Shown piece after piece: positions 21,631-54,500 of a stretch of DNA of 64,000 nt; positions within the stretch are counted from its first letter, which is position 1, and each line of letters opens with the position of its first letter. The stretch covers positions 248,001-312,000 of the forward strand of contig OZ025707.1 in NCBI GenBank assembly GCA_964019335.1, read 5' to 3'. The notes beneath the pieces are model-generated. The model did no database searches and was not told the origin of the DNA. It was given only the letters and a program-made list of their open reading frames with translations. The position numbers were made by a program, and so were the translations under genes. The DNA comes from Diplonema japonicum (taxonomy: Eukaryota > Protista > Euglenozoa: Diplonemea).

Positions 21631-21756
21631 ACATACTGCAGGCACCCTTAAATAGTCTCTTTTTTGAACGGTGAGCACCCACCCGCACACCGAAATTTAT
21701 CAATTTTTTTTTTTAATTTTTTTGGGGGTTCTTGAATTTGGGTTAAAAGAAATAAA

Positions 21757-24036: not shown

Positions 24037-24045
24037 CAATTACAG
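24031..24045 (+). promoter_or_regulatory. Putative programmed stop-codon readthrough signal CAA-TAG-CAA-TTA-CAG (TMV-type UAG-CARYYA)
   Basis: This is the only stop between the same-frame ORF1 and ORF2, and its context is identical to the tobamovirus leaky stop. Confidence 0.75.
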
Positions 24046-28423: not shown

Positions 28424-28457
<34 letters not shown>

Positions 28458-32930: not shown

Positions 32931-33171
32931 AAAAAAAAAAGGAAAGAAAGAAAAAAATAACATAAACCCCAACAACCCTCTTCCCCCATGTGCACCAATA
33001 AAAAAAAAAAAAAAAAAAATAATTCTTCATGACTATATGTCTTTGTTGTTCGCACGAGCAAAAAAGATTTTTAAAAAGCTGCGAAAGTTTTTTTGCTCGG
33101 CACAAGTTGCATATAGTTATAAAATCATTTTTTGAAAGATAAATATTTGTATCAAAAATAATTCTTTATGA

Positions 33172-34201
33172 CTATATGTCTTTGTTGTTCGCTTCAGGAC
33201 CCTCTGGGACCGCGGAACGCGGTGCCGTAACGGCGGGGCCGTGGAGGCGTCTCTCACTACAGGAAGTGGCCTGATCTTGCCCCCGGGTGCGTAAGCCCCG
33301 CGTGAATGGGTCTGCCTTCTGCTCGTGTGTGGAAACCCACTGGACGTGGAGATTTGCCTGACGCTCCTCTACGAGAGTGTATATGTCAGCAATTATCTTA
33401 TTTCCCATGAAGCTAGATGACAGCCCCTTCCGAATCGCGTACACAGCAGGCAGGTTGTCGACCATCAGCGATACCTTGCAGCGGGACCCCCCACGGAGGG
33501 CCATGAAAGCTCCTTCCCGGGCTGCCGCTAGTTCCTTCAGGAAGATGTGACGTGCTTCCCACCGTCCGCAGAACTCTCCCTGCGTCACGACTCCCTCGGG
33601 GTACACCTGCTGTCGCCGACAACCTTCGTCGTTTCTTCAGCCTGCAGAACCTTCTCTACCCACTTCGGAGCCATCCTGTACCGCGCGGACCCAAGATCAA
33701 AAGCAAGCCCCAAAGCCTCGAACTCCTGGTTTGGCACGCCCGCACCAGCCTCGTCGAAGTGCAGGTCCACCCCGACCTTCTCGCACCTCTGCAAAAAGCA
33801 ACCGAATTCGGGTGGTCGATCTTCACTTTCCTCAGGACTCCGTAATCTCTGAGCGTCGGGAGGTGGCGAAGCATGCCCCGCGATGTGCCCCTCAAGCACC
33901 TCGGAGCCTCCATCTCTGTCAACGCCCCTTCCTTCAGCGCACCCCGGAAAGCATGTTCACAGCAGATGACATGGACGACACCGTCAAGGATCCCACGCTC
34001 GTCCAACTCTTTGAGGGCAGGGACACTGATCCTGCTTCTCGATATCGCCGCAATGTCGCCGTCTGAACCCCGCTGGGCAGGAGGCGAGACCCCGCTGGGC
34101 AGGAGGCGAGACGCCAAACAAACGCGGTTCTGCGTCATATCCAATGAAGGGGTCAGCCGACGGGAAAGTCTCGAAACCGTCCAAAGGGTCGTAGTCAGCA
34201 C
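33172..34201 (-). pseudogene. RT/RNase H with the RT core deleted
   Basis: DIRS-type RNase H: HIFLKEL, MVDN, QWVSTHEQKADPFTRG. Only the RT flanks remain (LRDYGVLRKV; EALGLAFDL) and no YxDD motif is visible. Confidence 0.7.
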
Positions 34202-34246
34202 CCTGGCTGACCTTGGCGGAACTGCGGAAAAAAGAAAAAGGGAATT

Positions 34247-34884
34247 TCACCTGAGCAAAGAAGAGGTCTTTGCAGTCGCCCTCACTGTGTGTACCTCGGC
34301 CTGGGGGAGGTACCGCATCAATGCCGTCGTCGATGAGTGACGGGAGACAGCCCGCAATTCTTCCAGCGCAGCCCCCCTGCGCATTAGCGTGTGGAGCGCG
34401 CCCCTGCGAATGGAGTGGGCCGTGAGGCCTTTCGAAGCTTTGCCCATTGCTCTGTTCACGTGGGGGTATTTCACACCTTCGAACAGGAGGTCGTCCGGCC
34501 CAGCCTCCAGCAGCGTGCGTCCGATGTAAAGTCTGGCCCTCTCCGAGACGGCCACCCCCGTCGTGATGCCCAGTCGAAAAGGGTCCGACTTGGTGTTGGA
34601 CCAGTTCACGGCGATGTGTCCCGGCAGACCGTCACGTCCTTGCACTTCAGGCGGATGACATCCGAGCACCTGGCCGCCCCATACCAGGCGAGTTCGAGGA
34701 CGGTTCGAACCTTCTCGCTCGATGTCTTGCGCATTGCCCTCCGAAGCTGTATGGGAGTAGCAGGAATCGCCTGCTTCTGTGGCCGCAAAGCCCCTTGGCG
34801 CCGGAGGCTGCGTTCGAAATCTCGGAGCGCTCTGCTCTGAACGGGGCCCTGTCCATACCTGGCTTCGGCTGCCCTGATGTTCAC
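34247..34884 (-). pseudogene. Tyrosine recombinase (frameshift near 34625)
   Basis: WYGAARCSDV (R), TKSDPF (K), TAHSIRRG (HxxR), SRH, MRYL (Y), split over two frames. Confidence 0.85.
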
Positions 34885-34933
34885 GCAGTACTGTAGCGCC
34901 GAGTGAGCGGGAGTTCGGTGACTTTCGGCCTTC

Positions 34934-35896
34934 CTAGCGAGGGAGCATTGTTTGTTTGTCGAGAGGGAGAGAGAGGAAGAAAATGTGAGTTTGGATAAGG
35001 GGCGTGGGTACGTGGGGTGCAGGGGGAGAGGCTGTCAACGCTGTCATTTCCTGCGCCAATCCCTCGATCCAGACCTTCTGCGGGATCTGTCCTCGTTCTC
35101 CCCGGACGCCCTGCCTTCCCTGCGGCTTTTGCCTCCCCTTATTGTAGCGCTGGTCCGTGAGCTTTCGCTTCCTGCGTCGACGGGTGAGCTCTTCGGCCAG
35201 GCGTTCTCCCTTTCTCAAAAAAGTAGGGACCGACTGCCCGTCGAACGCCTGCTGGATCGCGTCGGCGGCCTCCCAGTTGTCCCTGCTGCCCGAGGCGGAC
35301 AAGCGTTGAGTTTAGCTCCACCGGGTCTTGACAGCCAATGGCCATTACGATCTCCTGCAGGTTCTTGACCCGCATGCCTGCCTCCCAAGCGTGGGGCCCG
35401 ACGGTCAGCTGCCTGTACTGCATGGCGATGTTGGCCACCACCATGGGCCCGGCTCTAACCACGCCCACTTCGACGGCTCTAAGGCTTGCAGACCCCATAG
35501 CGGTGGGGGAGCCTGAGTGTCGGGGTTGTCCTGTGGTGAGTCGTCGGCGCTTGGCTCGTCGCGAAAACCCTCCGAGTCCGCGGAAGACTGAGAGGCTAGG
35601 CGTCTGCGCCTTCCGTCGCGGATTCCGGGGAGGTTGACCCCAGTCGTACCCTCGGCGCTTGGCCCTCGATTTACCAAGAGTTCCAGCCGATGTCCCGACC
35701 CAAGGTGCGAACTCTCCACCCGGTCCCTAACCGTGGGGAGCAGCTCGGAGATGGCCCTTTGAACGGCCTGCTCGACGAGCCGGTCGACCCTGGTTCTCTT
35801 AGGGGTCGCCTCACTCCGGCCTGGCGTCTGGCACGGAGGCGGGGAGGTGGGTGATCCAACCCTCTCTCCACCCGCTTTGGCAGTCTTCGGCGGCAT
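34934..35896 (-). pseudogene. gag-like ORF of the YR retroelement (frameshifted)
   Basis: MPPKTAK start at 35896 just inside repeat A, followed by overlapping ORF pieces 35405-35926, 35139-35498 and 34934-35302. Confidence 0.5.
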
Positions 35897-36026
35897 TTTA
35901 CTTTTTTTTGTTGTTCGCACGAGCAAAAAAGATTTTTAAAAAGCTGCGAAAGTTTTTTGCTCGGCACAAGTTGCATATAGTTATAAAATCATTTTTTGAA
36001 AGATAAATATTTGTAACAAAAAAAAA

Positions 36027-36167
36027 GCCATTAGCCAACTGAAGAGAATACCCATGTCACAAAAGGTGCTAGAACAATAACACAGGTCGACACGAAAGCA
36101 CGAACGTCTCAACACACTTCCGTTGGCTCCACACAGCCCAGCTGGGTGGGGTCGGTCTGGCTAGACC
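36027..36167. repeat. Repeat module A (second copy 37994-38138)
   Basis: Near-identical gccattagccaactg..ggtcggtctggctagacc; self-complementary arms agccaac/gttggct. Confidence 0.85.
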
Positions 36168-36207
36168 AAGAGGAGGTGGAATTTAAAAAAAAATAAAAAA
36201 GTAACAA

Positions 36208-36323
36208 AAAGAGGAACTGGCCGTTGTTTGTACGTGCCGGGTAAAACCTGGAGAAGTTTGTCAACCCGAAACACGTTGCCAACGTTCCCCTTTTGTTTAG
36301 ACAAGTCAAAGACTCGTTCTTGC
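36208..36323. repeat. Repeat module D (second copy 58899-59013, outside the island)
   Basis: gaggaactggccgt..cgggtaaaacctggag..gacaagtcaaaga.tcgttcttgc followed by an A-run in both copies. Confidence 0.85.
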
Positions 36324-36347
36324 AAAAAAAGAAGAAAAAGAAAAAAA

Positions 36348-36514
36348 GGATACTGTGGTCCGACACCCACAGTAACCAGGGGGGGGGAAAAAAAAAGTGC
36401 CAAACAACCAGCAAAGCTTGTGGAAAGGGAACACCAGTACGGTCATGAGTACCCGGGCAACCGGGTGAGCGTCTCGACACTTCCAACCCACCTAGGGTGC
36501 GGCCTTAGCAAGTC
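36348..36514. repeat. Repeat module C (second copy 38962-39134)
   Basis: ggatactg.ggtccg.cacc..aagtgccaaacaaccagcaaagcttgtgg..cccgggcaaccgggtgagcgtctcga..gggtgcggccttagcaagtc. Confidence 0.8.
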
Positions 36515-38399
36515 CCGCAGCCCGTCCTGGCTAGGGTTAAGCTGCACACTTTAAGGACACGACGCGGAACGCGGAAGAAGCTACAGCTCGGCCGCGGTGC
36601 GCCCCCTGTAATCAAGTAGACAGCTCATGCTTCGCTGCACACTTAACGCCACTTGGTGTTGCAATCAAAGCCCCGTATTTTTCTCTTTTTTTTTTTTTTT
36701 CTTCTTCTCCTTTCTCGTTCCTCCCTGTGTTTTTTCTTTAATCAGAATGGTGCGACTGCTCAGATAACGTGCACGGGACCTCAAGCTAGTTTTATGGTAA
36801 AATGAATATGTTGAGACGGTTCGTACGAACCCCTACAGACCCTGTTGAGTGTTTGTACGCATGCCGCACTGAATATACGTACCTACCTTACCAATGAATA
36901 TACGTAAAAATATCATAAATACAAGTTATAGAACCTCTTTGCACGCCCCAGCACACATTCTTTAAGCAACGTTTTATCTTCCCTGCCCTCCCCCCTTTTT
37001 TTTTGGACACTTCTTAACACACTTCCATTGGCTCCACTCAGCCACCCCCCCCCCTCTTTTTGTCTTTTCTGTTTATCCCCCCCCTTTTTTTCAAAATGTC
37101 AACATAAACACACAGGACGGGGGGTGAATGGGTGGGTGACAGCGCGGCTGTGACACGGTTGTTCGAGTCGGGGTATTCCCGTAACTGGACTACGAGCGGC
37201 ATTCTCTCAAAAACTTCTGTTTGGTATGATTCCTTTTCCGTGGCAGGTGGCGCTTTAGGTGGCCGAAAAGAAAGCACGATCCCCTCCTATCCCGGGGAAA
37301 CCCTTCTTGACATCCTCCCTCCGATCCATTGGTGCAAACAAACGGGTCCGAGGAGGGTATTCCTGCAGACCTACATTCGCATCGTACGACAAGGTGCGCT
37401 TCATCCTTGAACAGCGACTCGCAACCGGCTCACTGGGGAGGGACGACTGGGACAACAAGTTCGTGCCGACTATTTTGAATCTACCCGAAGAATCCCCACC
37501 CCATCTGCCGATAAAGATGCAGCGACGCAGAAGTAACAACACAAGATAGACCCTCCACCATGCTGCACACTTAACGCCAAATAGTGTTGCAGCCAAAGCC
37601 CCATTTTTCTTTCCTTTTCTTGAGGTGGTGGATAACATGGAAATATAAGAAGTACATCAGATGTGTTGTTCGCTGTTGACCTCCTCGTCGGTCATCACCG
37701 GTAGCGCCCGAGTGGAAGAACGTATTGCAGATGCTCAGGGTGACGAACAGGCAGCAAACTGCACGAGCGCAGAATCTTGGTTACCCAGGACGCCCTGGAG
37801 TCGGGGTATTCCCGTAACTCACGGCTGATCCGATCAAGAGCCCCGCATCTGTCCAGGTCCCCGTTATGGGGACCCGGTCCATGCAGTTGGACTCTCTTAT
37901 TTAACTAGTTAAATTATGGCCGTTTCGCGTTAAATTATGAGGCCCCTAGTGAGTGAAGAAAATGACGAAGAGTGAAATAAAAAAAAAAAAAAGGCCATTA
38001 GCCAACTGTGGAAAGAGAATACCCATGTCACAAAAGGTGCTAGAACAATAACACAGGCCGACACGAAAGCACGAACGTCTCAACACACTTCCGTTGGCTC
38101 CACACAGCCCAGCTGGGTGGGGTCGGTCTGGCTAGACCGAATTAAAAAAAAAAAAAAAAAAAAGAGTGCCCTGCAACCGAAGCGGCGAGGGCGAAGCACT
38201 CTTCGACACCCTGTCACTGAAGCACGTCCTAGTGGAAGAACCCCGAAAGACGATCCTGTTTCTCGCCGAAACAGAGATGCAACCCCCCACCACGGCAGCC
38301 GACCGAACAGACGCAGCAGTGTGAAGAAAATAGAAAACCCCCCAACGAACTTTTCCCCACCCCATAACGTGATCAAAAAAAAAAAAAAAAATAACTATT

Positions 38400-38551
38400 T
38401 ATTAAATGAAAATAAGATTGCATTATTTCACGCGTGGTGGCAGGGGGTTTAACGAGAGAGGATCTTACTTCACGAGCGAAGCGAGTGTAGTAATAATTTC
38501 GAGTTAAACCCGCCACCACAAGTGAAATAATGCACTTATTTTCATTTAATA
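38400..38551. mobile_element. Palindromic MITE-like hairpin element
   Basis: About 50-bp inverted arms attaaatgaaaataag..tgcattatttcac.cgtggtggc..gggtttaac / gttaaacccgccaccacaagtgaaataatgcacttattttcatttaat around a central cacgagcgaagcgagtg. Confidence 0.65.
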
Positions 38552-38933
38552 TGTTGTTTTATTTAATAAGAGCCAGGTTTGAAAGGGTGGGAGGTTACAG
38601 GTGCAGGCACAGGTTACAAGAAGAAATCAAAACTGAGAGGCAGCAAAAAAGGTTGGGTATTATAAGCTACAAGGGATTTCAAGTTACCAGTTCTCGTTAG
38701 TTCATTAATGTTGATGTCGAGGCTTATCCTATGCATCGCTACCGCTGGAACCCCATCCCAAAAAGATTTTTCAAGGGGTTGGGTGCATTTTTTTCCACGG
38801 TGAGACCCATTTTTTCACTCTGAAGGGCCATTATTTAACTGCAAAATCTCATTATTTAACTAGTTAAATAATGGCCATTTCGCGTTAAATAATGAGGCCC
38901 CTAGTGAGTGAAGAAAATGACGAAGAGTGAAAT

Positions 38934-38964
<31 letters not shown>

Positions 38965-39236
38965 TACTGAGGTCCGGCACCCGCAGTAGCCAAAAAAAAA
39001 AAAAAAAAAAAAAAAGTGTAAAGTGCCAAACAACCAGCAAAGCTTGTGGGATGAGAACACCAGTACGGTCATGAGTTGCCCGGGCAACCGGGTGAGCGTC
39101 TCGAGACACTTCCAGGGTGCGGCCTTAGCAAGTCGAAAAAGAAGTGGAATTTAAAAAAAAAGAAAAATAGAATAGCGGAAATATGTGGACGTTCCAAAGG
39201 TAGCTGATCCGACGTTATTGGGATTTAATCTATTGT

Positions 39237-39490
39237 TTAACCCTTAAACGCCCAACTGCTTCTGTAGAAGCAGTTAATAGGTGTAATTGTTCTGTGGTCA
39301 TCTAGACCAAAGCCTCGGATCGGTTTTCATAAAAAAAAGATGGAAGGGAAAGATATTGAAAATCTGTGTTAAATGCGCTATTTGTATCCATCTGAAACCT
39401 CATAACTTCATCCCGGAACGGGTGCCGAGACACTGGGTGACACCAAAAATGGGCATTTTCCGGATTTTCATGATTTTTCCGTGATTTTTT

Positions 39491-39524
<34 letters not shown>

Positions 39525-39734
39525 AACTTGAACAAGTAAACAAATTTTTGAAAAGAATTGTTATTGCAAAAAAGAGTAGAGGCAGCTTGTCCGTTTATCC
39601 CTACTGTAGGTGAAAACGGCTTGCACAAACAATCAGCCGACTCTTTTTTCCGAGTCACTAGGCCTTATCAAAATCAACATGCCAGCACACAACGGGAGCA
39701 GTTCCCGTCGACCTGCAATGTTCATATGGGTTAA
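39237..39734. mobile_element. Possible piggyBac-like non-autonomous element
   Basis: TTAA-CCC at 39237 and GGG-TTAA at 39728-39734; palindrome aactgcttct-gt-agaagcagtt. The TIR match beyond CCC is poor. Confidence 0.25.
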
Positions 39735-40180
39735 ATCCACCTCTCTCGTTTCTTTTTTATTTATTAGGACCGCGATGACGATGTAGTTGTGGGTCCGGTT
39801 GGGATCCTACGAAACAGGTGCCCACCTTTCTGGAGAACGGATGGTTTTTTTGATGCACTCGTTCTTCGTCGCGTCCCAGTGGCCTCCCGCAGTCCGGCGG
39901 TTCAGAGGCTGGCAACGGTCCTGCGAGCAGACGCTGCTGTAGCGTTCCACGAGCAGCAATCGCAAGCCTTGCAGTCTGCCTGACGGTACGCGAGCAGCAA
40001 CAGCAGCGACACCAACACCAGGGGCGCTCGAATGCCAAACAGGACCCCAGCAGCAACACTACTACGTCCCCTTCGAACCCCAACAACACCCCCACCAGAT
40101 CTACTGCTCCCTCGATACGGCTGAACGACGACGGGGAGCTGTCGATCCAGGCTACTGGGTCCAACTACAAGTCCCTGTGT

Positions 40181-43100
40181 ATGAAGATCACCGCGATGTG
40201 TGCACACCCCGATGTGCTGAACTACGACTTCACTACCTGGGCCCCCAAGACCGTCTTCAGGTACCTGAACTTCCTGAGACGTTACTTCGTCGGGAACTTC
40301 TTCACCGCCAAGATCGCGGCTATCGAACGAGGCCTCACCAACCGCCTCAGCCCTGCCCTCTTGAAAAAGGTGGTCCGCCGAGACGAAGGCTTCGTGTGGT
40401 TCAAAACGAGTTTTGACCACAAGGCCAAGGAGATGATCCTCTGGCGTAAGGTCTTCGAGGACAAGGAGGTAATTGCGGCATGCCCCAAGCCAGCCCTCCT
40501 TCGCAGAGTACACATGTGCAACAAGCTTGGTCAAACCCTCAAGGCCACAGTGTGCAATGTGACGAAGCTCAGCATCGAGACCCCGCGTCCAGAAGCGGCC
40601 GAGCCTACAACAAACTGCCCTTGCTCGAAGCGCAAGACCTCACACACACATGAGGGACACGCCTGCGGACTAGCAGCAGAGGTCATCGATGACGACGAAG
40701 TGAAGGAGGTTCTGAACAGAAGCATGAAGTTCCGCCTCTCAACACACGCCCTCCTCTCTTCCCAAAGTCTCGAGGAGGACATCAACGGGTTCATCACTCA
40801 GAACTTTCGGAGATCCCCTGCAGTGAAAAAGGATTCCTTCCGGAAGGTCCTCCTCGCCAAGGCACAGAACCTTCTCCACCCCCACACTCAGTCTCCGGTC
40901 TTCGACCCCTCAGTCCCGGAGTTCATCAAGACAAAGCTCCGGAAACTTCAGGAGGTCTACGTTTTCCTCCCCATAGACAAAAGCACCCACGACATTGGCG
41001 TCTGTTGCAAGGATCGCCCCTTTTTATCTATTTCTTCGCTTCTTCATCCTAACTTAAAACCATTTCAGCTACCTCAGGATCCTGCACCAACAGCTTGATA
41101 GCCAAGCTTTCGAGCCGGTCTCGAAGCCCTTGGACTCGATCTTCTCCGAAATAGCTGATCAAGCCAAGACCTTCAACCTCGATTCCACACGTCGCATGCC
41201 ATACCTGTACGGTACCCTGAAGCTACACAAAGACAAAGTGGGCGTCAGGTGGATCTCTGGTGTCTCCTCCACTGATGCACCCCCTGTGGACCAACCAGCA
41301 GCGGTCAGCACGCAGGAAATTATGGAGAACTTGGTCGCAGCAGGCGGCGATACAACGGGCAATAAAGCTAAGAAACCCACAGCTGCCACCACGGCCCTCC
41401 ATCTAGAACTGTCTTCCCTCCTGAAGGCTGTCCAACGCGCGCTGCTGGACAAGGATCTGGAGGGCAGGTCCAAGACCCACGGTCCCGACGGTATCCGACT
41501 AAAGCGGTACTGGATCGTCGACTCGGCCGAGAACGTAGCTGCGGATATCAAGCAGCAGTACACGGCTTACAAAAGCCTGTCCCCTGCCACGTACGACTTC
41601 CGGGACATGTACACCAACCTCGACCAAGAGCGTCTGAAAGAGGGGGTTCGTAAAGCAGTCCAAGAAGCGTTCGACTTCACCGGCAAGAACCTCACCCGTG
41701 GCAAGGACGGGAGCTCCTTCACAGATGCCGACGAGGACGATGTCTACACCCCGGAACGGATCCATAAGCTCCTGGACCTCGTCGTTGACAACACCTATGT
41801 TGTGCAGGGTGGCCGCGCCGTTCGTCAAGTAAAGGGTATCCCCATGGGTGGGAACGCCTCCCCCGACCTGGCGAACCTGTTCTGCTACGCCGTGGAGGCC
41901 GCATACATCGACAAGCTCCTCGCCGAAGAGGACTGGGAGACCTTGAAACGCTACTGCAACGCGTGTCGCTACATCGACGACTTCCTGTTGTGGAGCACTG
42001 CGCCACCCCCGGAGGAGCTTTATGGCATGGCTTATGTAAAGACCTCTTCAGACCCATGCGACGTCCCCTTTATCGGGATTCGCATCCGGATAGAGCGCCA
42101 CGAACAAGCTAAGCACAACTATATTAGACTTAGCATTAACGATAAGGCGCAGAACTGGCGCTTCCGGCCTACGCGGTTCACCCACGGGCACACCGCGGCG
42201 CCCACCACCCAGGGACCAGGCATCTTCAAGGGCATGGTCATCCGTGCCTGCGCCCTGACCAACAACATCGCGGACCTCAAACGGGAGATCGCTTCAGTGA
42301 TCTACCTGCTCCTAGATCGCGGTCACGACAAGGGCGGCCTGCGGAAAGCGTACAACGCCTTCCTTATCGAACGCGTGGATCGACGCTTCGCCATGGAGAA
42401 AAGCAACCTGCTGGCCTTCTTCACGCAAGTCCTCCACCGATACGACGCCAAAGCCCCGGTAGATTCTTGGTTGCCGGAAAAAACGTACATAGGCCCCAAG
42501 AAACCCCGTGCGCTTCCCACGGACGACTCCTCGGACGACTCCTCAGCTGACTCCTCAGTCGTCTCCTCAGTCGCCTTCTCGGGGGGCCCCTCAGACGAGC
42601 CCTCGGACAGTTCCTCGGACAGCTCTTCAGGTCTTGTCGAACCGTCACAACCCCGAGCAGCCTCCGTGGTCTCACCATCTGGTGTCACGGACCAGGTTTT
42701 TTCGCCCCCCATCAACCTGCACACCAACAGCGGGGAAGGTCGCCTGGGCCTGGAATGCGGCTGGGCCGTCATAAACTGGTTGGCGGACTATGCTGGTGTG
42801 GACCGCATCCCCTTCTCTACAATGCAGGAGATCCAGGAGATGTACCACGGCTTCTCACGACTCATCTCCCCTTCCAGCACTGATGAAGCGCCCGATCCTC
42901 TTGGCAACTTTTCCCGCTCGACCTTGTCACGTGCTTGCCTCATGGTCGTTGGTGCAAACTTGGAGGTCTTCCGTGCGGGCATGAAAGAAAGCCCCTGCTT
43001 GATCGTTGGTCCCTTGAAACGAAGTCTCAGCGGCCACTGGTTCATCGCTCTCAGGAAGAAGGGAAGGTACATGGTCAAAGACACCGACGTACGGCTAAGG

Positions 43101-45350
43101 CTCCAGAGCTTCAAACACATCTGCGCGACATACTCCGAACACAACATCCTCTGCATCCCAGACGATGTGTGGGCCAGGACAACCCCAGGCAGGAAACACA
43201 ACACACGTGTTCTAGACCCTGAGGCTGAGTTTCGCCAGTTTGGGCCGGTCATCACCCCGGCGGCACCCCAGGTAAGCGACTCGAGCGCGCGAAAGACTGA
43301 GACCGCTCTCAACACCCCGGAAGATCGCACCCTCCTAACTTATGTCACCCTAGCTGCAGCTATAGCTACATATGCCGCACGCACCCGACGGCTCGACACA
43401 GGAGTCGCCGCATCAGGTGTGGATGCGCACACCGCTCACTTCGGGCGGCCCGTCGCCACCGCCATCGTAGCCCTAGCTGCCGCCGTGGCCGCGCGAGCCG
43501 TGCACACCGGATGCTCTGTCACCACCACGTCTACGGCAAGCCAGACTAACGTGTTCGGAACTGTCCCGCTCTTCCTGAAGGTCTCGAGTCTGCACAAGTC
43601 TACACCACAGACAGCAGTCGCAACCTGTCAGACGGACCGTGTCACAGCACCTGTACTGTTCTCGATATCATCGACGCTCCAGACGGATCCTCCCAGCAGT
43701 AGACTGCCCCCGATGGACGCCGGACTGGGGTCGCCCTCGGCCGCGGCGGTCAGACTTACGAAGTCTGTCGAAATTCCGACGCCCCGCGCGACCCTGTCGA
43801 GGCGGCTGGTTACTGAGCCTCGGTTGACACCATGCCTTCCACCGCCAACGGACGTGTCATCCACCCAGCTCGCGGCCTGCACTCAGTCCACCCGTCGGGA
43901 CACCGGACACGGGAGTGACACACCGATGCCGTCGTCTACCATGGGACACGCGACACTCCAACCAGTGGTCGGCTCCCAGATTGTGACAACGTCGGCTGTG
44001 GAGTCATCGCTCGCCCGAGCCGTGACAACGCCCGTTCTGGCAGACGCCCCCCTCGGCGCCCGCCAAGTACAGCTCACTCCTTGCATCCAGTCCGTCCATG
44101 AGAACATCGGACTCGGGATGGATACGCCGATGGCTCCCGCCATGGGACACACAACGCTTCAACCGGTGGTCAACGCCCAGAGAGACACGACGCTGACCCT
44201 GGAGCCGCCCGTGGCCCGAGCCGAGGCAGACGCTCCCCTAGACCCTCACCAGGCGGATGGTGGTTTAGAAATGATCGACCTCACGCAGGACTCCCCGGAC
44301 AGACCCTCGCGCAAGAAGAAGCACGACGGCACTGCTTACGAGCACGAAAGCCGTCGTGGTAAGAGTTCCTCCACAGGCGATGGGGATCTTCTCATCCTGC
44401 GCGAGCAGTCACAGGGTTTTGATCAGAAAGCCCTCAACCGAAGGGCCCTCCAGAGACGGATGGATCGATACCTCAGTCTCTTGGTCTACTTCCGGCGACA
44501 CCCGGAGCTCTTGGACGAACACCAGCGTCAGCTCCTGTCGGTCGGTCCCCTCCCGATGCACCTGGACACCTCTCCACATCAACTGCTGCTCGAGGCCCGT
44601 GACACGGATAGAACTGCCGACCAACAGGCAACCGTCGCCAACCAGGAACAGCTTCTTCTGATTGCGCACAAGGCGTTGCCTACCACCGAACGTCTTCGGT
44701 TGTCTCACGAATGGCACTCGGGGCTGAACACCGCGGTACAGCAACAGTGGTGGTCGGAGTTCTTCGCCCAAGGCGGCTGGAAACACCCACTCTTCGGTTC
44801 CGAGGCCCCAAGAGGTGACGAGACTAGGACTCCAGGGAGGACCCCTCTCCTGCTCACCTACAACGGGCAGAGGAACAAACGCCCGGAACCCGAAGACGGC
44901 CCCGCCCTTCCCGCGGCCAAACGGGATCTCGCCGCGACGAGGCCGAACACCAGAGTCACTGGACTTGTCGCCCTTAAGAGGCTCACCAGGGAAGCAGACG
45001 TCGACGGCCCTGAGGACCTGGATGAGCTTCGACACCTGGGCTTCCTTTCCCAGGGCGAGGCCGTCTTTGACCTCAGCTGCATGTCCGGGGCTTGCACACA
45101 CTTCCTGGGTGAGACCCCCATGGTCACGGTCCCCCTCGACACACGCGTCGCGATCCCGTGTCTGCTGGTCTGTTATGACTCGACGTGGCTCTACGCTTCC
45201 CGCCAGGAACAGGGCTTTCGGTTGCAGACCCAAGGGTTCAAGGACAAGTCGTATCCGACTGTGGCAGCCCTACTCGCTGACTTCGTGGGGGCAGGGACCC
45301 TCTACTACAGCGAGTCACAGTGGTCGACTGTGCTGAACTCCTACAACTAG
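40181..45350 (+). CDS. PLE polyprotein (N-terminal domain - RT - Josephin-like protease - low-complexity linker - degenerate second Josephin-like unit), interrupted by a 52-bp insert at 41017-41068
   Basis: Removing 41017-41068 gives in-frame ..DIGVCCKDRYLRILHQQL.. The frame stays open upstream to about 39853 without an ATG, so the true start is uncertain. Confidence 0.75.
41017..41068 (+). repeat. 52-bp exact copy of the PLE 3' terminus (45785-45836), splice-acceptor-like
   Basis: cccctttttatctatttcttcgcttcttcatcctaacttaaaaccatttcag is identical at both sites. Confidence 0.9.
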
Positions 45351-45836
45351 GAACTACTGGAGACGACCCTACGCAATGTAGGAGTGCCGGCCCGGCGTGC
45401 TACGAGGGCGATAGGCTATGCAGGGTCTCACAGACCTCGCACCCTATGATTTTAGTTTCCACCTTTTCCTTTTCCACTTCTTGTCTTTTAACTTCCCTTC
45501 TGCTTTCCCAACATGGTTTCCGTCCCGGGTATGACGTTAAACTGCGTCCGCCGACGCATTTGGGTCAACATTCTCTGATGACCAAGCCGTCTTTTTCCGT
45601 TTCTTCTCCCCTTCTCTTTGTTATGTTATTTTCATTATTCTTTCTGGCGATAGACTGATACGGGCCATGGAAGCAACCTCTGCTTAATTCCTGGTACGTG
45701 GGAGGCTCCTCTTGAGGATGTCAGTCACCTTTTCCCTTTTTTACTCGACTCTCTGTTTTCGTATGCAGTATTTATTCTTTCCCACCCCTTTTTATCTATT
45801 TCTTCGCTTCTTCATCCTAACTTAAAACCATTTCAG

Positions 45837-46480
45837 GTACCTTACTGAAACTCTCGATCAAGACGCAAGTGTCAAAAACTGCTGCGGTGAGACACCGATT
45901 CATCTAGCAGCGGAGAGCGGCCACCTCGAGACAGTTACATATCTTTCTGAGACTCGCGGTCACGACGCAGGTGTGAAAAGCAACGATGGTTGGACACCGA
46001 TACATGCAGCAGCACAGAATGGCCAGTTCGAGACTGTTAAATATCTTGTTGAAAATCGAGGTCAGGACGCAGGTGTGATATGCAGCGATGGTCGGACACC
46101 TGTTCATGTTGCAGCAGATAATCGCCACCTGGAGACAGTAAGATATCTTGTTGAAACGGTCGGACACCAGCGACGGGGCAGCGAAGTAACTGACAATGAG
46201 AGGAAACAATTGCAAGGCTGAACAAGGAAATAAAATGCTATACAGCGAGCAGGTGGAAGGGAAGTACCCGTCACCAATCAGCCAGAGACATGACACGTTC
46301 TTGTGGAAAACCACAAACGCCATCATGCAATATAAAAAAGAATATATATATCTCGGTGAATCCGGGGACCTGCCCACCTCCTCAACAACTCAACAACAAC
46401 CATCTAACCTGCCGAAGTAGCATGCTGATCAGAAGGCGGCTGAGGCACTTATGATTTAGTCAGAATCCCCGAGACTCCAT
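45837..46480 (+). pseudogene. 3' portion of a third kinase-ankyrin family copy (about 3 ANK plus 3' region), truncated by the PLE
   Basis: YLTETLDQDAS..GWTPIHAAAQNGQ.., stop at 46221; the 3' flank matches 21200-21262 and 32405-32500. Confidence 0.75.
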
Positions 46481-46545
46481 CGTTTGAATCTTAAAAGAAG
46501 AAAGAAAAAGGAGGGGAAAAAAAAGGGGATCAAGGGTCCGACACT

Positions 46546-46875
46546 TTTGCTTTTTATTCCCACTTGCAATATCATTTCAGACACCCCCTGTGGAACTGAC
46601 CTGACCAGCCCACCTCCCGTAGTTTCAGCCATTTTCCTCCCACCACTTCATGGTTTTTATATAAAAACTTTATTTTATTCGACTTTCTGTTTTCGTATGC
46701 AGTATTTATCCCTCTTCACCTGTTTTTTTATTGTTTTCGCTTTTTATTCCCACTTGCAATATCATTTTTAGGTGCCCCTTTTGTCGATGTCAGACGAGGG
46801 TGAGCCACTTACATTACCTTTTCCTTTAAGCAACTTCTGGTACGTGGGAGGGTCTTCTTGAGGATGTCAGTCACT
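46546..46875 (+). mobile_element. Relics of related PLE 3' ends
   Basis: 46676-46771 resembles 45744-45836; 46546-46580 repeats its end; 46836-46874 matches 45692-45729. Confidence 0.6.
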
Positions 46876-47040
46876 TCTTTTTTTGAGAACAAGGGGGCGT
46901 CTCACAAAAACTTCCTTTAACTCATATATTTCTTATTCGACTTAAAGTCCCCCCCCCCCCCCCCCCCCCTTGTACTGCTTTTTTGTTATTATTTTCCTTC
47001 TTTCCCTCTTAAAACACACATTCAGAAAACCAGCTACTTG

Positions 47041-47120
47041 CACAACAACAACAAACATGCACCCACCTGCTGCGAACAACACCACCCTCACAAAAGAGGA
47101 GGGGAGGGTTGCCTGGTCAG
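47041..47120 (+). pseudogene. 5' stub of a stand-alone ankyrin-module gene (MHPPAANNTTLTKEEGR)
   Basis: (CAA)n leader and ATG at 47057, followed by sequence near-identical to 30197-30250. Confidence 0.6.
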
Positions 47121-47147
47121 TCCATCGGATACGAATTTATTATAGTG

Positions 47148-47250
47148 CGACATGATCAGACTGGAACGGCCGCCCCGGGGCATCCTCTGCTCAACCCGGC
47201 GGACGTGGGAGGCCCTTCTTCGGAAGGTGCCAGTCGCTTGATCAGTGTCG
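47148..47250. other. GC-rich multi-stem structured segment
   Basis: Outer stem cgacatgatca-gactgg / ccagtc-gct-tgatcagtgtcg; inner stems ccgccccggg..cccggcgg and ccttc-ttcg-gaagg. Confidence 0.35.
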
Positions 47251-47524
47251 TCGAATGCGCGCTATATTTTATAATTATGTTTACATCAATCGATCGAAAA
47301 CAGAAGAACGCACACCAAGAGCTCATAGTTTCTTCCACGAACGGTCGTTTCGATGCTCTCCGGGGCCTTAGGAAAAAAAAGATTTTTTTCTGACAGGTTT
47401 TGGCATGTTAGAATTCTTCCTTAGGATAAGACCGGCTTTTTTTGAAATTTCCCTTAGAGATGGACAGGCAGGACGGCAAGATAGCACAGTAGCGGAGATG
47501 GGGAGGAACTGAGACGCCGTTATG

Positions 47525-47596
47525 AGTGAAGATTCTCGTTGTGGACAACATCCCATCAATGTCGCTGTGGTGGAGAAACGGTTGGCGGCGATGGGG
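47525..47596 (+). pseudogene. REC-domain fragment of the duplicated response-regulator gene
   Basis: Matches 48613-48685 (VKILVVD..VVEKRLAAMG) with a 1-nt deletion. Confidence 0.8.
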
Positions 47597-47830
47597 AACT
47601 CTACATTTCTTTTTTTTAAGCCGAGGTTTCGTGGGATAATGGCGTAGACCTCGTTTCTTGGAACTACAACACCACCCGTCTTCCGTTGGGCAACTTCGTA
47701 AGTGCTGGCGCTTTTTCGCTTGAGTTATATAAAATGTTTTTTTTTTTCTTTCCCCTCCCCTTTCTTCTTTTAATGCTTCAACAACTAAAAAAAAACTACA
47801 CCTCCAGGCAGTCTCCCACCCCTCCCCCTC

Positions 47831-48988
47831 ATGGATGGGCGCGACGAGGAGACAGACCTAGCATATGTGAACTGGGAGGGGTTGGAAGAATGGATGAGGG
47901 AGGCCTTCAAAGGTCTGTTCCTGACACCGATGGGGATGGGCGCCGTGCACTATTTCAAGGAGGTGTCGATGGGCGACGATGCTGTGAAGGTGCTGGCCGT
48001 CACAAGAGAGAGCATAATGCTGTTCACCAAGGAGTGCGGGCTGCAAGGCGTTGTGGCAATCGGTTCGGTGGTAGCGTGCGTGTGCGGGTTGGAAGGCTGG
48101 GTCGCCGTGCACACCGAAGACAGGTGCCTGGCGTTCCAGTGCAAAGACCAACAACAATTTATCCGGCCCGTCTTCAACCTCTTCAGGCATCTGACGAAAA
48201 AACAGCTTCCTTTGAGCAACTCTGCTACTGTGTACCCTGCAATCTGCGAGGGCGTCTCTGAATGCAGCCCCCCTCGATCGAAACGCCCTGTTGTACAGGT
48301 TAGCCATCTCCGTGCCATACCCCTCGTCAACGACGTTCCCTTGGAAGGGAAGGACTGTGGAAGCTACTACCAGGTGACGGAGCAGCCACCGCACGATGGC
48401 GAACGGGAGAAGGAGATTGTTGTGAGAAATCGTAACGCGGCAGTTCCTGTAGAGGTGTATGAGAGGTTGGACAAACAGGACAGTAAGATTGCACAGTTGG
48501 AGGAAATCATCAAGAATATGCAAGCGGAGATGGAGGAACTGAGAGGGAAGGTGACATCGGCCCCGAAGCATGATTTGCAAACAGAACCGCTTATGCCAGG
48601 CCCCACGCGTCAAGTGAAGATTCTCGTTGTGGACGACATCCCCATCAATGTCACTGTGGTGGAGAAACGGTTGGCAGCGATGGGGTTCGATTGCATCACA
48701 TCATGCCACGCTTCACAACAGGCAACTACGTTGCTCAACACCTCATGTTTCGACCTCATCTTCCTCGACACTGATATGCCTTACCTTTCAGGGTACCACC
48801 TCTTGTCGTACATCCGCGCGAACCCCACGCATATTAACCACTCGTCACTTTTCATTTCGCTTATCTTGGACCCGTCGCCGATCGACAGGGACAAGTCCCG
48901 TGCAGCGGGGTTCGATGGCTGTGTTCCGAAACCAGTGGAGACCCCTGTGTTGAAAAAGCTGGTGATGAGCTTAGTGAAACGTATTTAG
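47831..48988 (+). CDS. PH-like domain + coiled coil + response-regulator receiver domain protein
   Basis: ILVVDD, DLIFLDTDMP (phospho-acceptor Asp), GFDGCVPKP; N-terminal KVLAVTRESIMLF is PH-like. Confidence 0.8.
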   Translation: MDGRDEETDLAYVNWEGLEEWMREAFKGLFLTPMGMGAVHYFKEVSMGDDAVKVLAVTRESIMLFTKECGLQGVVAIGSVVACVCGLEGWVAVHTEDRCLAFQCKDQQQFIRPVFNLFRHLTKKQLPLSNSATVYPAICEGVSECSPPRSKRPVVQVSHLRAIPLVNDVPLEGKDCGSYYQVTEQPPHDGEREKEIVVRNRNAAVPVEVYERLDKQDSKIAQLEEIIKNMQAEMEELRGKVTSAPKHDLQTEPLMPGPTRQVKILVVDDIPINVTVVEKRLAAMGFDCITSCHASQQATTLLNTSCFDLIFLDTDMPYLSGYHLLSYIRANPTHINHSSLFISLILDPSPIDRDKSRAAGFDGCVPKPVETPVLKKLVMSLVKRI

Positions 48989-49387
48989 AGTCTTTTTTTT
49001 TTGTAGGCGATCCTGTCACATACTGCAGGTTCCCTTCAAAGACATCTTTTTTTTTTCTTTCTCCCCCCTTCCCCCCCACTTTTGTTATTATTTTTGTTGG
49101 CTGAGGCTTCTCGACTTCTAGCTTTGTCAGCAGCCTGATCACCCGCTCTTCCATCTCCTGTTGACGTAGCTGCTGTGTTTTCATTTGTTCGTTCTGCTGG
49201 TTCCATTGCTCCTTTTGTAGTCTTTGCCAGTTTTGTTGAATTCCCTCCTGTTGTTCTTGCGGACTTTTGCATTCGGCATCATCCTCTTTGCATTCGGCAT
49301 CATCCTCTTTGTGTGCAGCCTTCCCATAAGATTTTTGGTTCGTTTTGTCGTTGATTTTCTTAGGGCGAAATCCGGGTTGATCCGCTG

Positions 49388-49438
<51 letters not shown>

Positions 49439-49485
49439 AAAAAAGGAAAAAAGAAGGCGGAGAAAAAAAAAAGAAAAAAAAGGAA

Positions 49486-50352
49486 ATGGAGGTGGTATCC
49501 GAAGCAATCAGCGGACTGTACGCCTACGCAGATCCTTTGAACGAGAGGTGGGTGTTGTTTTGGCAAACAGCCGTTGTGGACAACACCACGGAGTGGTTTC
49601 GCACCTGCATGCTATCGACGGCAACGTTTCTCGTGATATTCTGGATGCTCGCGGTCCCGGCTGTTTTCGTGAACTTTTTCCCGCAGCTCAACCCCATCGA
49701 GAGGTGGAAGATACAGAAGGGAGGGTACTTGACCCTCGAAAAAACTGCATCAATGATTTCACTGGTCCTCTTCAACCAAGCCATGACAGTGGGCATCCAA
49801 TACCTTTTATACGACACCGTGAAGGACCAGGTTATTACAGAGACAGACGGTCTGCCGCATGTTGTAACAATGGGTTTTTACATGTTTTTGAGTATGATTG
49901 GTTACGACGTGTTTTTCTTCATTGTTCATTGTTTAATGCACACAAAATGGCTTTATTATAATTGCCACCAGACGCACCACACTGTGAAGCATACTACTGT
50001 TTTGACTGCTGCGTACTTTCATCCTGTTGACTACATTCTGACGACGTTGTCGGCATTTATCACGCCGGCGCTGCTGTCCCCGCACGTTGCCGTGCAGTGG
50101 TGCTTTGGTATTATCTTGGTACTCGAATCGTCAAACGCCCACTGTGGGTTTCGCATCCCGTTCACCCCCGACTCCAGGGACCATGACTTCCACCACTCTC
50201 ATTCTAGTTACGCCAATGTGAAGTATCGATTTGTGAACATGGGGGCATTCTTTTTAATCTGCGACAGACTGTTCGGAACCCGCGAGCCATGCTTGAAATG
50301 GTGGAGGGAAACCGAGGCAGAGCTGGCGGAAACGAACAAAAAAGCTAACTGA
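49486..50352 (+). CDS. Fatty acid hydroxylase/sterol desaturase family (methylsterol oxidase-like)
   Basis: His boxes HCLMH, HQTHH, HDFHH; YFHPVD; DRLFGT; TM segments. Confidence 0.88.
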   Translation: MEVVSEAISGLYAYADPLNERWVLFWQTAVVDNTTEWFRTCMLSTATFLVIFWMLAVPAVFVNFFPQLNPIERWKIQKGGYLTLEKTASMISLVLFNQAMTVGIQYLLYDTVKDQVITETDGLPHVVTMGFYMFLSMIGYDVFFFIVHCLMHTKWLYYNCHQTHHTVKHTTVLTAAYFHPVDYILTTLSAFITPALLSPHVAVQWCFGIILVLESSNAHCGFRIPFTPDSRDHDFHHSHSSYANVKYRFVNMGAFFLICDRLFGTREPCLKWWRETEAELAETNKKAN

Positions 50353-50632
50353 AAAAAAAAAAAAAAAAAAAAAAGAAAAAAAAAGATTGACAGTGTTGAG
50401 GGGGGGGGGGGGGGGGGGGGGGTGCTTATACCCCGAAAGCACCATTTTCTCGTCAAAAAAAATAATGGTTTTTTTTTTTTTTTTATGGAAACCCGCCGGG
50501 AAGCCACCTTGAACCAACATGTTTTTTTTTGTAGAGATTTCTTTTTTTTTATTAGTATTTATTTCACCCTTTCCCCTCCCAACGCACCTTTCTTTTCTGA
50601 TGATAAACAACCAGGCGTGTGTAGTACTTGTG

Positions 50633-50663
<31 letters not shown>

Positions 50664-51514
50664 TCGTTCCACTCTCTCTCGCCCCCCCCTCCCAAAAAAA
50701 AGAAAGAAAAGTTCCCAAAGCCACCGTAGTCATCCCTGCATCGCCGTTGTAGCCTGAAACATGGACTTTGCATACAAGCAAAACCAGACTCGCGGCTCGT
50801 GTGGGGCATGGAAAAATGGAGTGTTGATGGAAACGTTCCTTGTTTGTCACTTTGTGTCCAACAGGGCGGAAAAGGGGGGATTCTTTCTTCTTCTTTTTTT
50901 TTTTTTTTTTTTTTAACGAGAAAAAAAAAAAAAACAAAATAAAACGATGTTGAGCCAAATTGTGATGGACAGCTTTTTTGACCTTCCCCCCTCCAAGAAA
51001 GTAGAAAAAAGGTTTTTTCTAGCATTGTGCTCACTAGTGTGTTATGCAAAAAAAAAAAAAAAGCAGCTCGGGGGGGGAGGAAAAAAAAAAGGGAAAAAAA
51101 ATAATTTTTTTTTGTCATTCAATGGGAACCAACAAAAAAAAAATTGCGGCTACGTTTCTTCTTCTTCTTCTTTTTTTTTTTTTTTTTTTTTTTTTTTGAA
51201 TCTCATGTTGGGATACCTCTGTATACCATCGGCGGTTACAGTGACAAGAAGGGGAGGGGGGGGGTCTCACAAGGACCTCCTTTTAACATATTTTCTTTTT
51301 CTGAAGTTTCGTGAAAAAAAAACCCCAGAACAGGCTAGACCGCCATCAACCGTCTACATAAGACGCTGATACCCAGAACCGAAAGAGGCGCTCCCAGAAA
51401 AGGAGCATCAAAATTACCTTCTTTTTCTTTTCTCCCCCCCCCCCCCATTGTCCGGCTGAGAAACCACCAAAAAAAAAAGGAAAACCAAAAAAAAAAAAAA
51501 ATGTCCACAAGAAA

Positions 51515-54500
51515 ATGACGGCAATCACTTCAATACGTGTATTACTATGTCTAACCATCGTGACGGGGATAGTGGCTCCCGCTACTAACGCGGAGAAAAA
51601 TGCTCTCGAGGACCTGTACAGGTCGACCTTCAACAAAAACATAGGCGGCCAGAAGAGGACGTGGAACAGGTACAACAATTGGATGAAAAACGATCCGTGC
51701 GACGGGAAGTGGCAAGGGGTCACGTGTACGTTCTGCCCGTCATGCAGAGTCACTAAAATATCGCTGTATAACAACCAGTTAAGAGGTTCCCTCCCAGCTT
51801 CTCTAAAGGTCTTAACTAAACTCCGTCACCTCGACCTCGGTGTCAACTCATATGGCGACCCACCAGATGACATGCTATCTGGTATGACGGAGTTGGAATT
51901 TCTAAGATTGGGGAACTCCCTCTCAGGTATTCTACAGGACTGGACGTCCAGTAGGAAAACGCTTACATTCATTGAGATCAACGGAGCGATGTCCGGGACA
52001 CTGCCGTTGGCGTACCTCGACCTTCCCAACATTAACGATTTTCGTTTGTACAGTACAAAGCTGACTGGGGGCATACCTTCTTTTGACCCCTTGCGAAACG
52101 CAGAACATATTCGCTTGGCGTACAACAGGAATCTGTACGGTACTGTCCCCTCGTTGGACAAGCTGACGAATTTGAAAACTCTGCGTATTACAAACTGCCG
52201 TGTGTCTGGAACGCTTCCCCCGTTCACGTCTCTGACAAAAATCGTCGACGTAAATTTGTGGAGAAACAGCTTATCCGGTACCGTTCCTGACTTTCCGGTG
52301 AAAGCGCTGGACACATTGGAGCATTTCGACGCGGAGGAAAACGTGTTTCAGGAGTTCAGTATGTACGAGAATCGCCCCGCCCCCGGCGTGTTCAAAAAGT
52401 TGAAATACCTCAACATGGAGGAGAACATCCTCACGGGGACCGTTCCGTGTCATAGAACCGCGTTTCCCGCACTTGCGGAATGGATTTCCGACAGGAATTT
52501 CTTGACGGGGACGATCCCGTGTCTCGACGACTTCGCCGGGCTTTCAAAACTACAGTTATCTGCAAACAGTTTCACCGGTACATTGCCCGATACAAAACCC
52601 GCTGGTATCTCCTCTCTCAGCCTGAATCGAAACAAGCTGAGCGGGACCATACCTTTCAACTTCGTCAATAATCTTATCGCAGCGAACACCATTGCATTGG
52701 GCGCGAATTGTTTCAGCGGTACCGTTCCGAATATGCCTAATCTTCCTTCGTTGGAGAATCTCTACCTCCACAGGAATTCCGAGTGGAAGCCGATGAAGCC
52801 CGTGCGGATCGAACCGCAGGAGTTCGAAGACCTCGCGATGGACGGTGATCAGAACACGGAGTACACCTGCACGCCCCCGAAATGTTCCATTCTCATCGAC
52901 TTCGGTGAAGACGTATGTGTCGAGGCGATGGTGTCAACATTTCCTGTGGACATTGACACGTCCCTTCCCATCTCCCGTCGGACGGCAGGCGTCGTCACGG
53001 ATATAAGGTTTTACCAAGGAAGGAAGAGCTTCGATTCTGCAGAAACGATACAGCCGATGACGTACCACTCGCATCCTGATGATTATATATGGAACGTTAA
53101 TGCGCCAGGGGCGGAGCACGTGATGTCCCGGCACGTGGTGCATGATGATAAGCTGGACGCGTGGCCGCCTTACTGTCAGGTCAAAACGAGGTACTATCGG
53201 TTGGACCTTACCAGTTGCCACGGGAAACCCTGTCGAATTCCTGAATGGACGTTCTATTCTGGGCAGCGGTTGTCCGGCAGCATCCCGTCGTTCGCTGGGC
53301 TTCCAAAACTTGATACGTTTCACATTTACGGGAACAACATGTCGGGGGTCCTTCCGGATGTGTCCGGGAACGATTGGGAAGGGTCCCTTCGCGTCGAGGA
53401 CAACCAGCTGACTGGCATCAACAACACGGATTTCTGCCCGCACTTCCGGGTGTTGAACGAGCTGCGCTTCGACCACAATTTGATCACAGGCACGATCCCT
53501 CCATGGGAATGCATGAAGGAGATTCAGAAAATCTCCGTCGGAGCGAACCCCCTCACCGGAACGCTGCCGCCAGTAACAAGCAGTGCGTTGAAGGACCTGT
53601 ATGCAGAGGAGACCGCTTGCTGTGTTGGGTGGGAACATGAGAGGTTGCAGTCGAAAACAAAAATATACCCGTGGAACCTTGCCACGGACTGCCCGAGGTG
53701 TGACACGGGACTTGAAGGACACCTGCTACCGTGGACGGGCATTCCAAACCTCGAAAGAATAGTTGTTGACGACAATGAGCTGTCGGGCACGGTGGGCAAC
53801 GTGGGCGTTCTGACTAAACTGGAAACGTTTTCCATCATATCGAACAAGCTGGCGGGGACGCTTCCGTACACAGAAATGATAGTGGCGGGAAATGGTACCA
53901 CTTCATGCGTGACCACGGCATGGCACATGGGGGACAACAGCTTTTGGGGCCCTGTTCCAAACATCAAGCAACCCTTGACAACACGGTCCTGCAACATGGG
54001 GAGGTACGAATGCAGGTGCGGGCGCTACACGCACAGCAACGACGGGCGGAAGATCTACCACCTTCAGTTCGACAACAACTACCTGTGGGGCCCCGCACCG
54101 ACCAACGTAGAGCGAACCATCAGCCACGTCATCTACAACGAAAACTGCTGGAACTGCCCCTTGCTGCCGAAGGCAATATGGAACGCCTCATGCTTGCTCA
54201 ACGAACCAGGGCCCTGCTTCACGGACGAGAAGAAGAAGACACGAACATCTCCTGAGCCAACATGGACGGGAGGCTATGGATCCGTAAAAGGCCTCACCCG
54301 CCCTCCAGTGTGCACAGAACCACCTGCTGAGAGATATTCACAGGAAGGTCCATCATGCATACCGGAACCGAAAGACTCACTTTATGAACATGTCACACGT
54401 TGCCAGACAATGCTGTACCTGAACAGGACATTGCGAGAGGACGAGGTGAGGTCTGGGAAGATAACACCGCCGATCACGATAACATTCAATGACGGGGCTG

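Follow-up and report, generated by a model that had tools for sequence, protein, structure and literature searches.

A sequence-preferring Chlamys-type Penelope-like retroelement in Diplonema japonicum whose 3′ end is fixed at a candidate splice acceptor

How a Penelope-like retroelement (PLE) defines its 3′ end is only partly known, and a read-through, promoter-poor genome offers a retroelement no obvious RNA end. Both problems meet in the 64,000-nucleotide stretch of Diplonema japonicum contig OZ025707.1 analysed here (the window), in which a PLE ends on an AG preceded by a pyrimidine tract. Could spliced-leader (SL) trans-splicing at this AG set the end of the element RNA, as a sequence-only reading of the window had proposed? 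All 17 of the large open reading frames (ORFs) scanned for protein families lie on the plus strand; the window ORFs are long and carry host-type domains, and long A runs are frequent in the candidate introns. Diplonemids organize genes in one-directional clusters and place the SL on essentially all mRNAs by trans-splicing (PMC10161547), and they encode Dbr1 (PMC12621601).

The segment is a 5′-truncated Chlamys-type PLE (Table 1), a class set by comparing its motifs with the description in PMC8557442. The RVT_1 match (E = 1.8e-4) is under the curated cut-off, and the RT, in an ORF spanning approximately 39982–45350, is of the PLE type with an upstream DK motif. D375 and K376 of this motif are invariant in the alignment with relatives, and C255 and C257 of the CxC motif, together with G268 and H269, are invariant in 5/5 alignment rows. 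Motifs A and B of the RT, whose long spacing in Chlamys elements reflects an insertion in the fingers, are separated by 81 aa compared with 89–103 aa in seven relatives, a comparison that has no canonical PLE as control. The window copy, itself truncated, has no GIY-YIG endonuclease domain; contigs from runs X1 and X2 extend 641 nt upstream of 39982 with sequence absent from the window, and three of the four relatives scanned (P0001, P0003, and P0009, not P0013) carry an N-terminal GIY-YIG domain without CCHH. The Chlamys clade, as described in PMC8557442, resembles the element in its CxC and DK motifs, possibly a long RT motif A-B spacing, 5′ truncation, accessory cysteine-protease-like domains, and lack of an Rfam hammerhead match, and shares with the element's close relatives the N-terminal GIY-YIG without CCHH. 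No hammerhead was present among Rfam matches in 36000–52000 or 45340–47400, and nothing reached gathering level in the window stretches or 11 related loci. The main copy, being 5′-truncated, shows no pseudo-LTR partial tandem; related-family ends are repeated at 46545–46771, and the related locus L007 has a terminal repeat.

Several further features of the ORF and UTR were observed. A Josephin-like stretch was seen by eye at ~42750–43090, where the match is not significant and Pfam gives none. Five relatives (P0001, P0002, P0006, P0009, and P0010) have a USP-type (UCH) domain after the RT in its place, which suggests a swap of deubiquitinase-like domains. For the 3′ UTR, predicted folding is no better than for shuffled sequence (z −1.25). 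An 80–90-nt motif recurs in three diverged UTR pieces (Table 1); 7 of its 20 predicted pairs are changed on both sides across these three sequences, and its single folds are no better than shuffles (z −0.54 to 0.29), leaving a putative RT-binding RNA element as a possible reading. GAAAC lies 22–51 nt upstream of CTGANGA in the 3′ UTRs of related loci L005, L006, L015, L019, L021, and L027, and by eye in L007 and L008. These are the two halves of a hammerhead core in swapped order, with no Rfam hammerhead match, and the window has TAAAC then CTGATGA at ~45538–45581. The 3′ UTR of a distant relative (L013, 2956–3002) gave a weak twister-P5 match below gathering score.

We obtained 15 homologues from 7994 scored candidates: eight named Diplonema papillatum, six unnamed, and one EukProt ‘Rhum’ transcript, which we take to be Rhynchopus. 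The closest named relatives come from the diplonemids Diplonema and Rhynchopus. In four Diplonema gene models (P0003, P0005, P0007, and P0014), an RT of this type seems to be fused to genes of the host (UNC93-like, dynein intermediate chain, RRP12), and the annotation apparently does not recognise these elements as PLEs. Among metagenome candidates, 29/70 are relatives. The related metagenome loci L006–L008 diverge in sequence and have no common AG end, an exact search of metagenome contigs for the element end gave 0 matches, and 0/63 candidate RT relatives in viral contigs were confirmed. Unlike the host of this element, the reported hosts of the Chlamys clade are green algae, spike mosses, and slime moulds (PMC8557442), a paper in which ‘Euglenozoa’ is mentioned 0 times. 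We found no description of PLEs in diplonemids in a search covering mostly open-access papers; elements of this kind may be recorded in the supplements of PMC8557442 and PMC10161547.

Table 1. Positions of the element, its copies, and its targets in the window
Positions	Strand	Feature	Basis
39982..45836	+	5′-truncated Chlamys-type PLE	RT match, relatives; 3′ end from read depth
39982..41015	+	N-terminal ORF part: linker, CxC motif (40616), DK motif (near 40973)	
41016..41068	+	Extra G and 52-nt 5′-truncated copy of the element's own 3′ end, inside its own ORF	Identity to 45785–45836; contigs
41069..41074	+	Target motif CTACCT, belonging to the ORF in its uninterrupted form	Contigs without the insert
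41069..45350	+	Remaining ORF: RT with motif A 41592, GIPMG 41835, YIDD 41970; long C-terminal extension	
45351..45836	+	3′ UTR, 486 nt, rich in T and C, joined to its target without a poly(A) tail	
45651..45734	+	Motif common to related UTR pieces 46792–46880 and 47157–47246	
45769..45836	+	AG-free pyrimidine tract, CTAAC (45817–45821), and terminal CAG (45834–45836): candidate SL acceptor, fixed end	Depth, sequence
45837..46221	+	Target: decapitated ankyrin-repeat coding fragment; 45838–45845 = TACCTTAC; no in-frame Met	
46545..46580	+	Related family, short 3′ end, terminal CAG, then ACACCCC	
46673..46771	+	Related family, longer 3′ end, terminal TAG, then GTGCCCC and another related UTR piece	

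The 3′ end of the element is fixed at the AG. Read depth falls sharply at 45836 in three of four runs examined, from 1422 to 184 in X3, from 14463 to 1435 in X8, and from 77704 to 12071 in X10, so that copies end at one position and not at variable ones. The fourth run, X11, gave a single contig that stops at 45808 and is uninformative on the end. The depth of 1009 in X3 bin 45835–45837 is the value that results if two of its bases have the high depth and one the low depth. Among the contig pieces listed for region 45775–45862, 5/21 terminate at 45836; no longer tail class is present among the contigs listed at the junction, and no poly(A) was present at any junction seen. Very short copies have 5′ ends near 45812, 45802, 45785, and 45778, and this scatter of truncation points argues against a single stall at CTAAC. 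At 45778, one 5′ exit point is common to two contigs (X8 and X10), whose letters upstream of it are alike, perhaps reflecting a shared truncation point or a subfamily. The depth of the element 5′ part (39982–41015) relative to host flank (~45970–46420) was 801/370 in X8, 3420/252 in X10, 13/24 in X1, and 22/172 in X2. This unevenness hints at recent amplification in some samples, with depth as a rough guide.

Four ends in the window had been grouped as one set. All four, with their flanks, are located where they had been placed, and each terminates in YAG; however, they belong to two families and are not four copies of one. The 52 nt at 41017–41068 are identical to 45785–45836. Contigs from all four runs examined omit the 53 bases at 41016–41068 and have a single A in their place; the insertion shifts the reading frame and produced no target duplication. 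Because contigs without the insertion carry an uninterrupted ORF, the terminal G at 41068 is element-derived and the CTACCT that follows is target-derived. An intron at 41016–41068 was ruled out, as the segment has no GT start and the uninterrupted form is found in contigs. The related family matches the main family at 78/95 aligned bases, retains the terminal YAG, once as CAG and once as TAG, and lacks CTAAC. Since the two families are homologous, we count the AG as one event, not four. Another related UTR piece starts right after 46771, and the flank there may therefore not be host DNA. Loose ends at 46883–46884 were dropped as target junctions and are likely subfamily variants.

Independent junction contigs bore out the shared motif downstream of the AG, and with it a preferred target. 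The proposed consensus, NYRCCYY, was fitted post hoc and follows 19/3921 AGs in the window. A motif does exist, but for the main family it is sharper, TACC(T) from position +2, with five further junction contigs matching up to TACCTTAC. From +2, one junction reads TACC (X8) and another TACCT (X8 and X10); a further TACCT comes from the consensus of two X10 contigs, and the remaining junctions read TACCTTAC (X10) and TACCTTACT (X1 and X3). Because only flanks similar to that in the window are visible, the result is an enrichment and not a logo. For ~70 copies in X10 (depth 17650 versus 253, a rough guide), chance predicts 0.05 TACCT flanks, compared with at least three besides the window's own (Poisson 2e-5). 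By algebra on binned depth, the fraction continuing into TACC is at least 11% in X3, at least 11% in X8, and at least 20% in X10, relative to 0.25% by chance, and much of this depth could stem from one amplified junction. The main X3 contig has two further letters, the second a T; most copies may therefore follow a looser pattern like that first proposed. Within the window, TACCTTAC occurs in 1/23 ankyrin units, the unit with the insertion, and TAC in one of the other 22. For one X10 contig, the best reading, inferred from two loose ends, is a 25-nt copy with a ~33 bp duplication on its flanks that starts right after the AG, which points to the downstream motif being target DNA. Independent DNA junctions support both the fixed AG end and the preference for a target motif, and this sequence-preferring PLE of Chlamys type also shows signs of recent activity.

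We then compared the end with a splice acceptor. At the main end, the terminal AG is the first to follow an AG-free tract of 66 nt, 75% of it pyrimidine, and 4/4 ends are the first YAG after an AG-free zone of 44–67 nt with 68–77% pyrimidine. A filter for the first AG after such a tract is passed by 22/3917 plus-strand AGs, 44/3658 minus-strand AGs, and 3/16 AGs in the element's own 3′ UTR. Shuffling the last 60 nt yields a terminal YAG in 0.6% of cases, and the AG frequency in the UTR is 3.3%, giving a chance of about 0.6–3% for an end on the first YAG, counted once for the homologous families. The description of the end as a textbook acceptor did not hold, nor is a role of CTAAC as branch point supported. 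CTAAC follows the pyrimidine tract instead of preceding it, and A makes up 39% of the 18 nt in front of the CAG, with five A among the 12 nt between CTAAC and CAG. YTRAY is found in 42% of shuffles and CTAAC in 8%, and the branch-point motif is absent at 46580 and 46771; in diplonemid introns, YTRAY is present in merely 2–16% (PMC12621601). For host cis acceptors, described in the sequence-only reading as mostly A-rich, 5/8 candidate introns reach 56% A or more over their last 18 nt, but the screen demanded an A run and the comparison is therefore biased towards the claim; A-rich intron acceptors are described for one diplonemid species (PMC12621601). The end fits a candidate acceptor of the SL type and not a textbook one.

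On these sequence features, we consider it plausible, while holding the view tentatively, that an SL trans-splicing cut at the terminal AG sets the 3′ end of the element RNA. Read-through transcription of a one-directional gene cluster would carry the element, and trans-splicing at the terminal AG would free the upstream RNA with an AG-OH end. The cut template would be branched and would need debranching by Dbr1. An N-terminal GIY-YIG endonuclease, as found in relatives, would nick a degenerate N-T-R-C-C-type site, and the RT would prime from the nick for target-primed copying. The new acceptor in the host would be a by-product with no rescue function. We favour the trans-splicing cut since two families end precisely at the first YAG and their host is likely to splice such sites. 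The sharp single end in X3, X8, and X10 with no longer tail class among the contigs listed, the CAG/TAG stop of the related family, the element-derived G at 41068, and the one-directional, SL-using, Dbr1-encoding host setting are all consistent with it. Our search, mostly of open-access papers without supplements, found no literature on a retroelement end generated by trans-splicing.

Other observations weigh against the cut. The homologous families provide one event. CTAAC is not conserved, comes after the tract, and is no more frequent than chance predicts, and many AGs look like acceptors, more of them on the minus strand than on the plus strand. In trypanosomes the pyrimidine tract also directs poly(A) cleavage upstream, coupling trans-splicing and polyadenylation (PMC4006747), and the same process here would strip the end from the mature RNA. 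Matches of 4 to 9 nt beyond +1, with visible junctions limited to window-like flanks, could mean pairing with RNA past the AG, which would exclude a cut. In a lizard PLE, reverse transcription begins at an internal position of the RNA, and a fixed end therefore does not require a cut (PMC11167929).

This last point leads to ordinary PLE chemistry, the main rival and a somewhat less likely explanation. The RT would bind a terminal motif and start at a fixed internal site on read-through RNA, perhaps helped by primer pairing beyond the AG, and the acceptor look would reflect a T-rich UTR and a chance AG. Internal initiation by the lizard element PAc was observed in vitro (PMC11167929), relatives from other hosts (L005 and L006) also have T-rich 3′ ends, and the graded flank matches, the chance level of CTAAC, and the abundance of acceptor-like AGs all agree with it. 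However, it demands that the end coincide with the first YAG after the tract, a 0.6–3% event, and the CAG/TAG variation of the related family is acceptor-like. PAc also has two start sites 30–40 nt apart (PMC11167929), compared with a single end for the window element.

It is unlikely, again judging by sequence features, that the AG is an SL acceptor selected for the element's own mRNA, either supplying the SL to a downstream ORF as a pseudo-LTR or promoting poly(A) addition upstream, with the DNA end set by the RT and not by a splicing cut. PLEs do place a copy of the 3′ end upstream of the ORF (PMC8557442), as seen in L007, essentially every diplonemid mRNA requires an SL site (PMC10161547), and the trypanosome coupling of trans-splicing to polyadenylation through the tract would serve the second variant (PMC4006747). 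This explanation leaves the exact fall of the DNA end on the AG unaccounted for; because the window copy is 5′-truncated, no pseudo-LTR/ORF junction can be read from it. The remaining proposal, in which rescue of a downstream host gene by each insertion explains why the acceptor persists, is very improbable. All four ends are on the strand of the gene cluster, but they amount to about three independent events and the bias is not significant; SIRE of T. cruzi may offer a precedent. Against the proposal, both insertions open to testing interrupt coding sequence, so a new SL site cannot bring the protein back. The 131-codon ankyrin frame after 45837 has no Met, and the insertion before 41069 breaks the element's own ORF. 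Downstream of 45837, the first four ATGs are out of frame with the ankyrin, and we found no ankyrin sequence or duplication upstream of 39982. An SL at 41069 would give an RT without its N-terminal part, from a first ATG at 41196 that is in frame.

Known systems share parts of this arrangement. SIRE of T. cruzi, from another euglenozoan retroelement, may provide downstream sequence with an SL acceptor, like the candidate here, a role that our literature search did not confirm. SIRE is the short 3′ part of VIPER (PMC12278014), a tyrosine-recombinase element whose end is set by recombination and not by an RNA cut, with no target-primed insertion. Many Chlamys elements target (CA)n or (C)n repeats, often with a 30–40 nt tail, in contrast to the TACC(T) targets, partly in coding DNA, and the acceptor-like AG end found here (PMC8557442). 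Chlamys relatives in Selaginella 28S rDNA show that the clade can have sequence-specific targets, but they use one rDNA site, have a canonical hammerhead, and are described without an endonuclease, whereas the window element uses a degenerate, dispersed motif (PMC8557442). The Poseidon element PAc offers a further parallel: its genomic 3′ ends are fixed and lack poly(A), it inserts by target priming, and its own sequence can serve as target; it differs in its C-terminal endonuclease, hammerhead, ATT target, and two internal start sites (PMC11167929).

The window holds further repeats. A LINE at 21736–28170, with an OTU-domain ORF1, an APE-RT ORF2, and a poly(A) run near 28425–28456, lies between two ankyrin-kinase genes. 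Very high-depth repeats at 39600–39860 and 46884–47170 are joined to each other in contigs, have a homologous piece upstream of the LRR gene (51257–51297), and are possibly non-autonomous elements. A ~115 bp direct repeat (~33030–33150 and 35905–36020) flanks, by eye, a GC-rich 2.8-kb segment, and there is a long inverted repeat at 38408–38543 and an inverted pair at 37897–37939/38829–38871; these repeats at ~33030–38871 may be further mobile elements. We know of no SL trans-splicing in Anolis, the host of PAc.

The wider reading, which we advance with some hesitation, is that a telomerase-related retroelement may take the 3′ end of its RNA template from the host SL cut, with every copy, down to 25-nt fragments, leaving a putative SL acceptor at TACC(T) sites of a polycistronic genome. 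If true, trans-splicing would join poly(A) and internal initiation as a third means of ending a retroelement template, and the element would be a source of new SL sites reshaping gene clusters.
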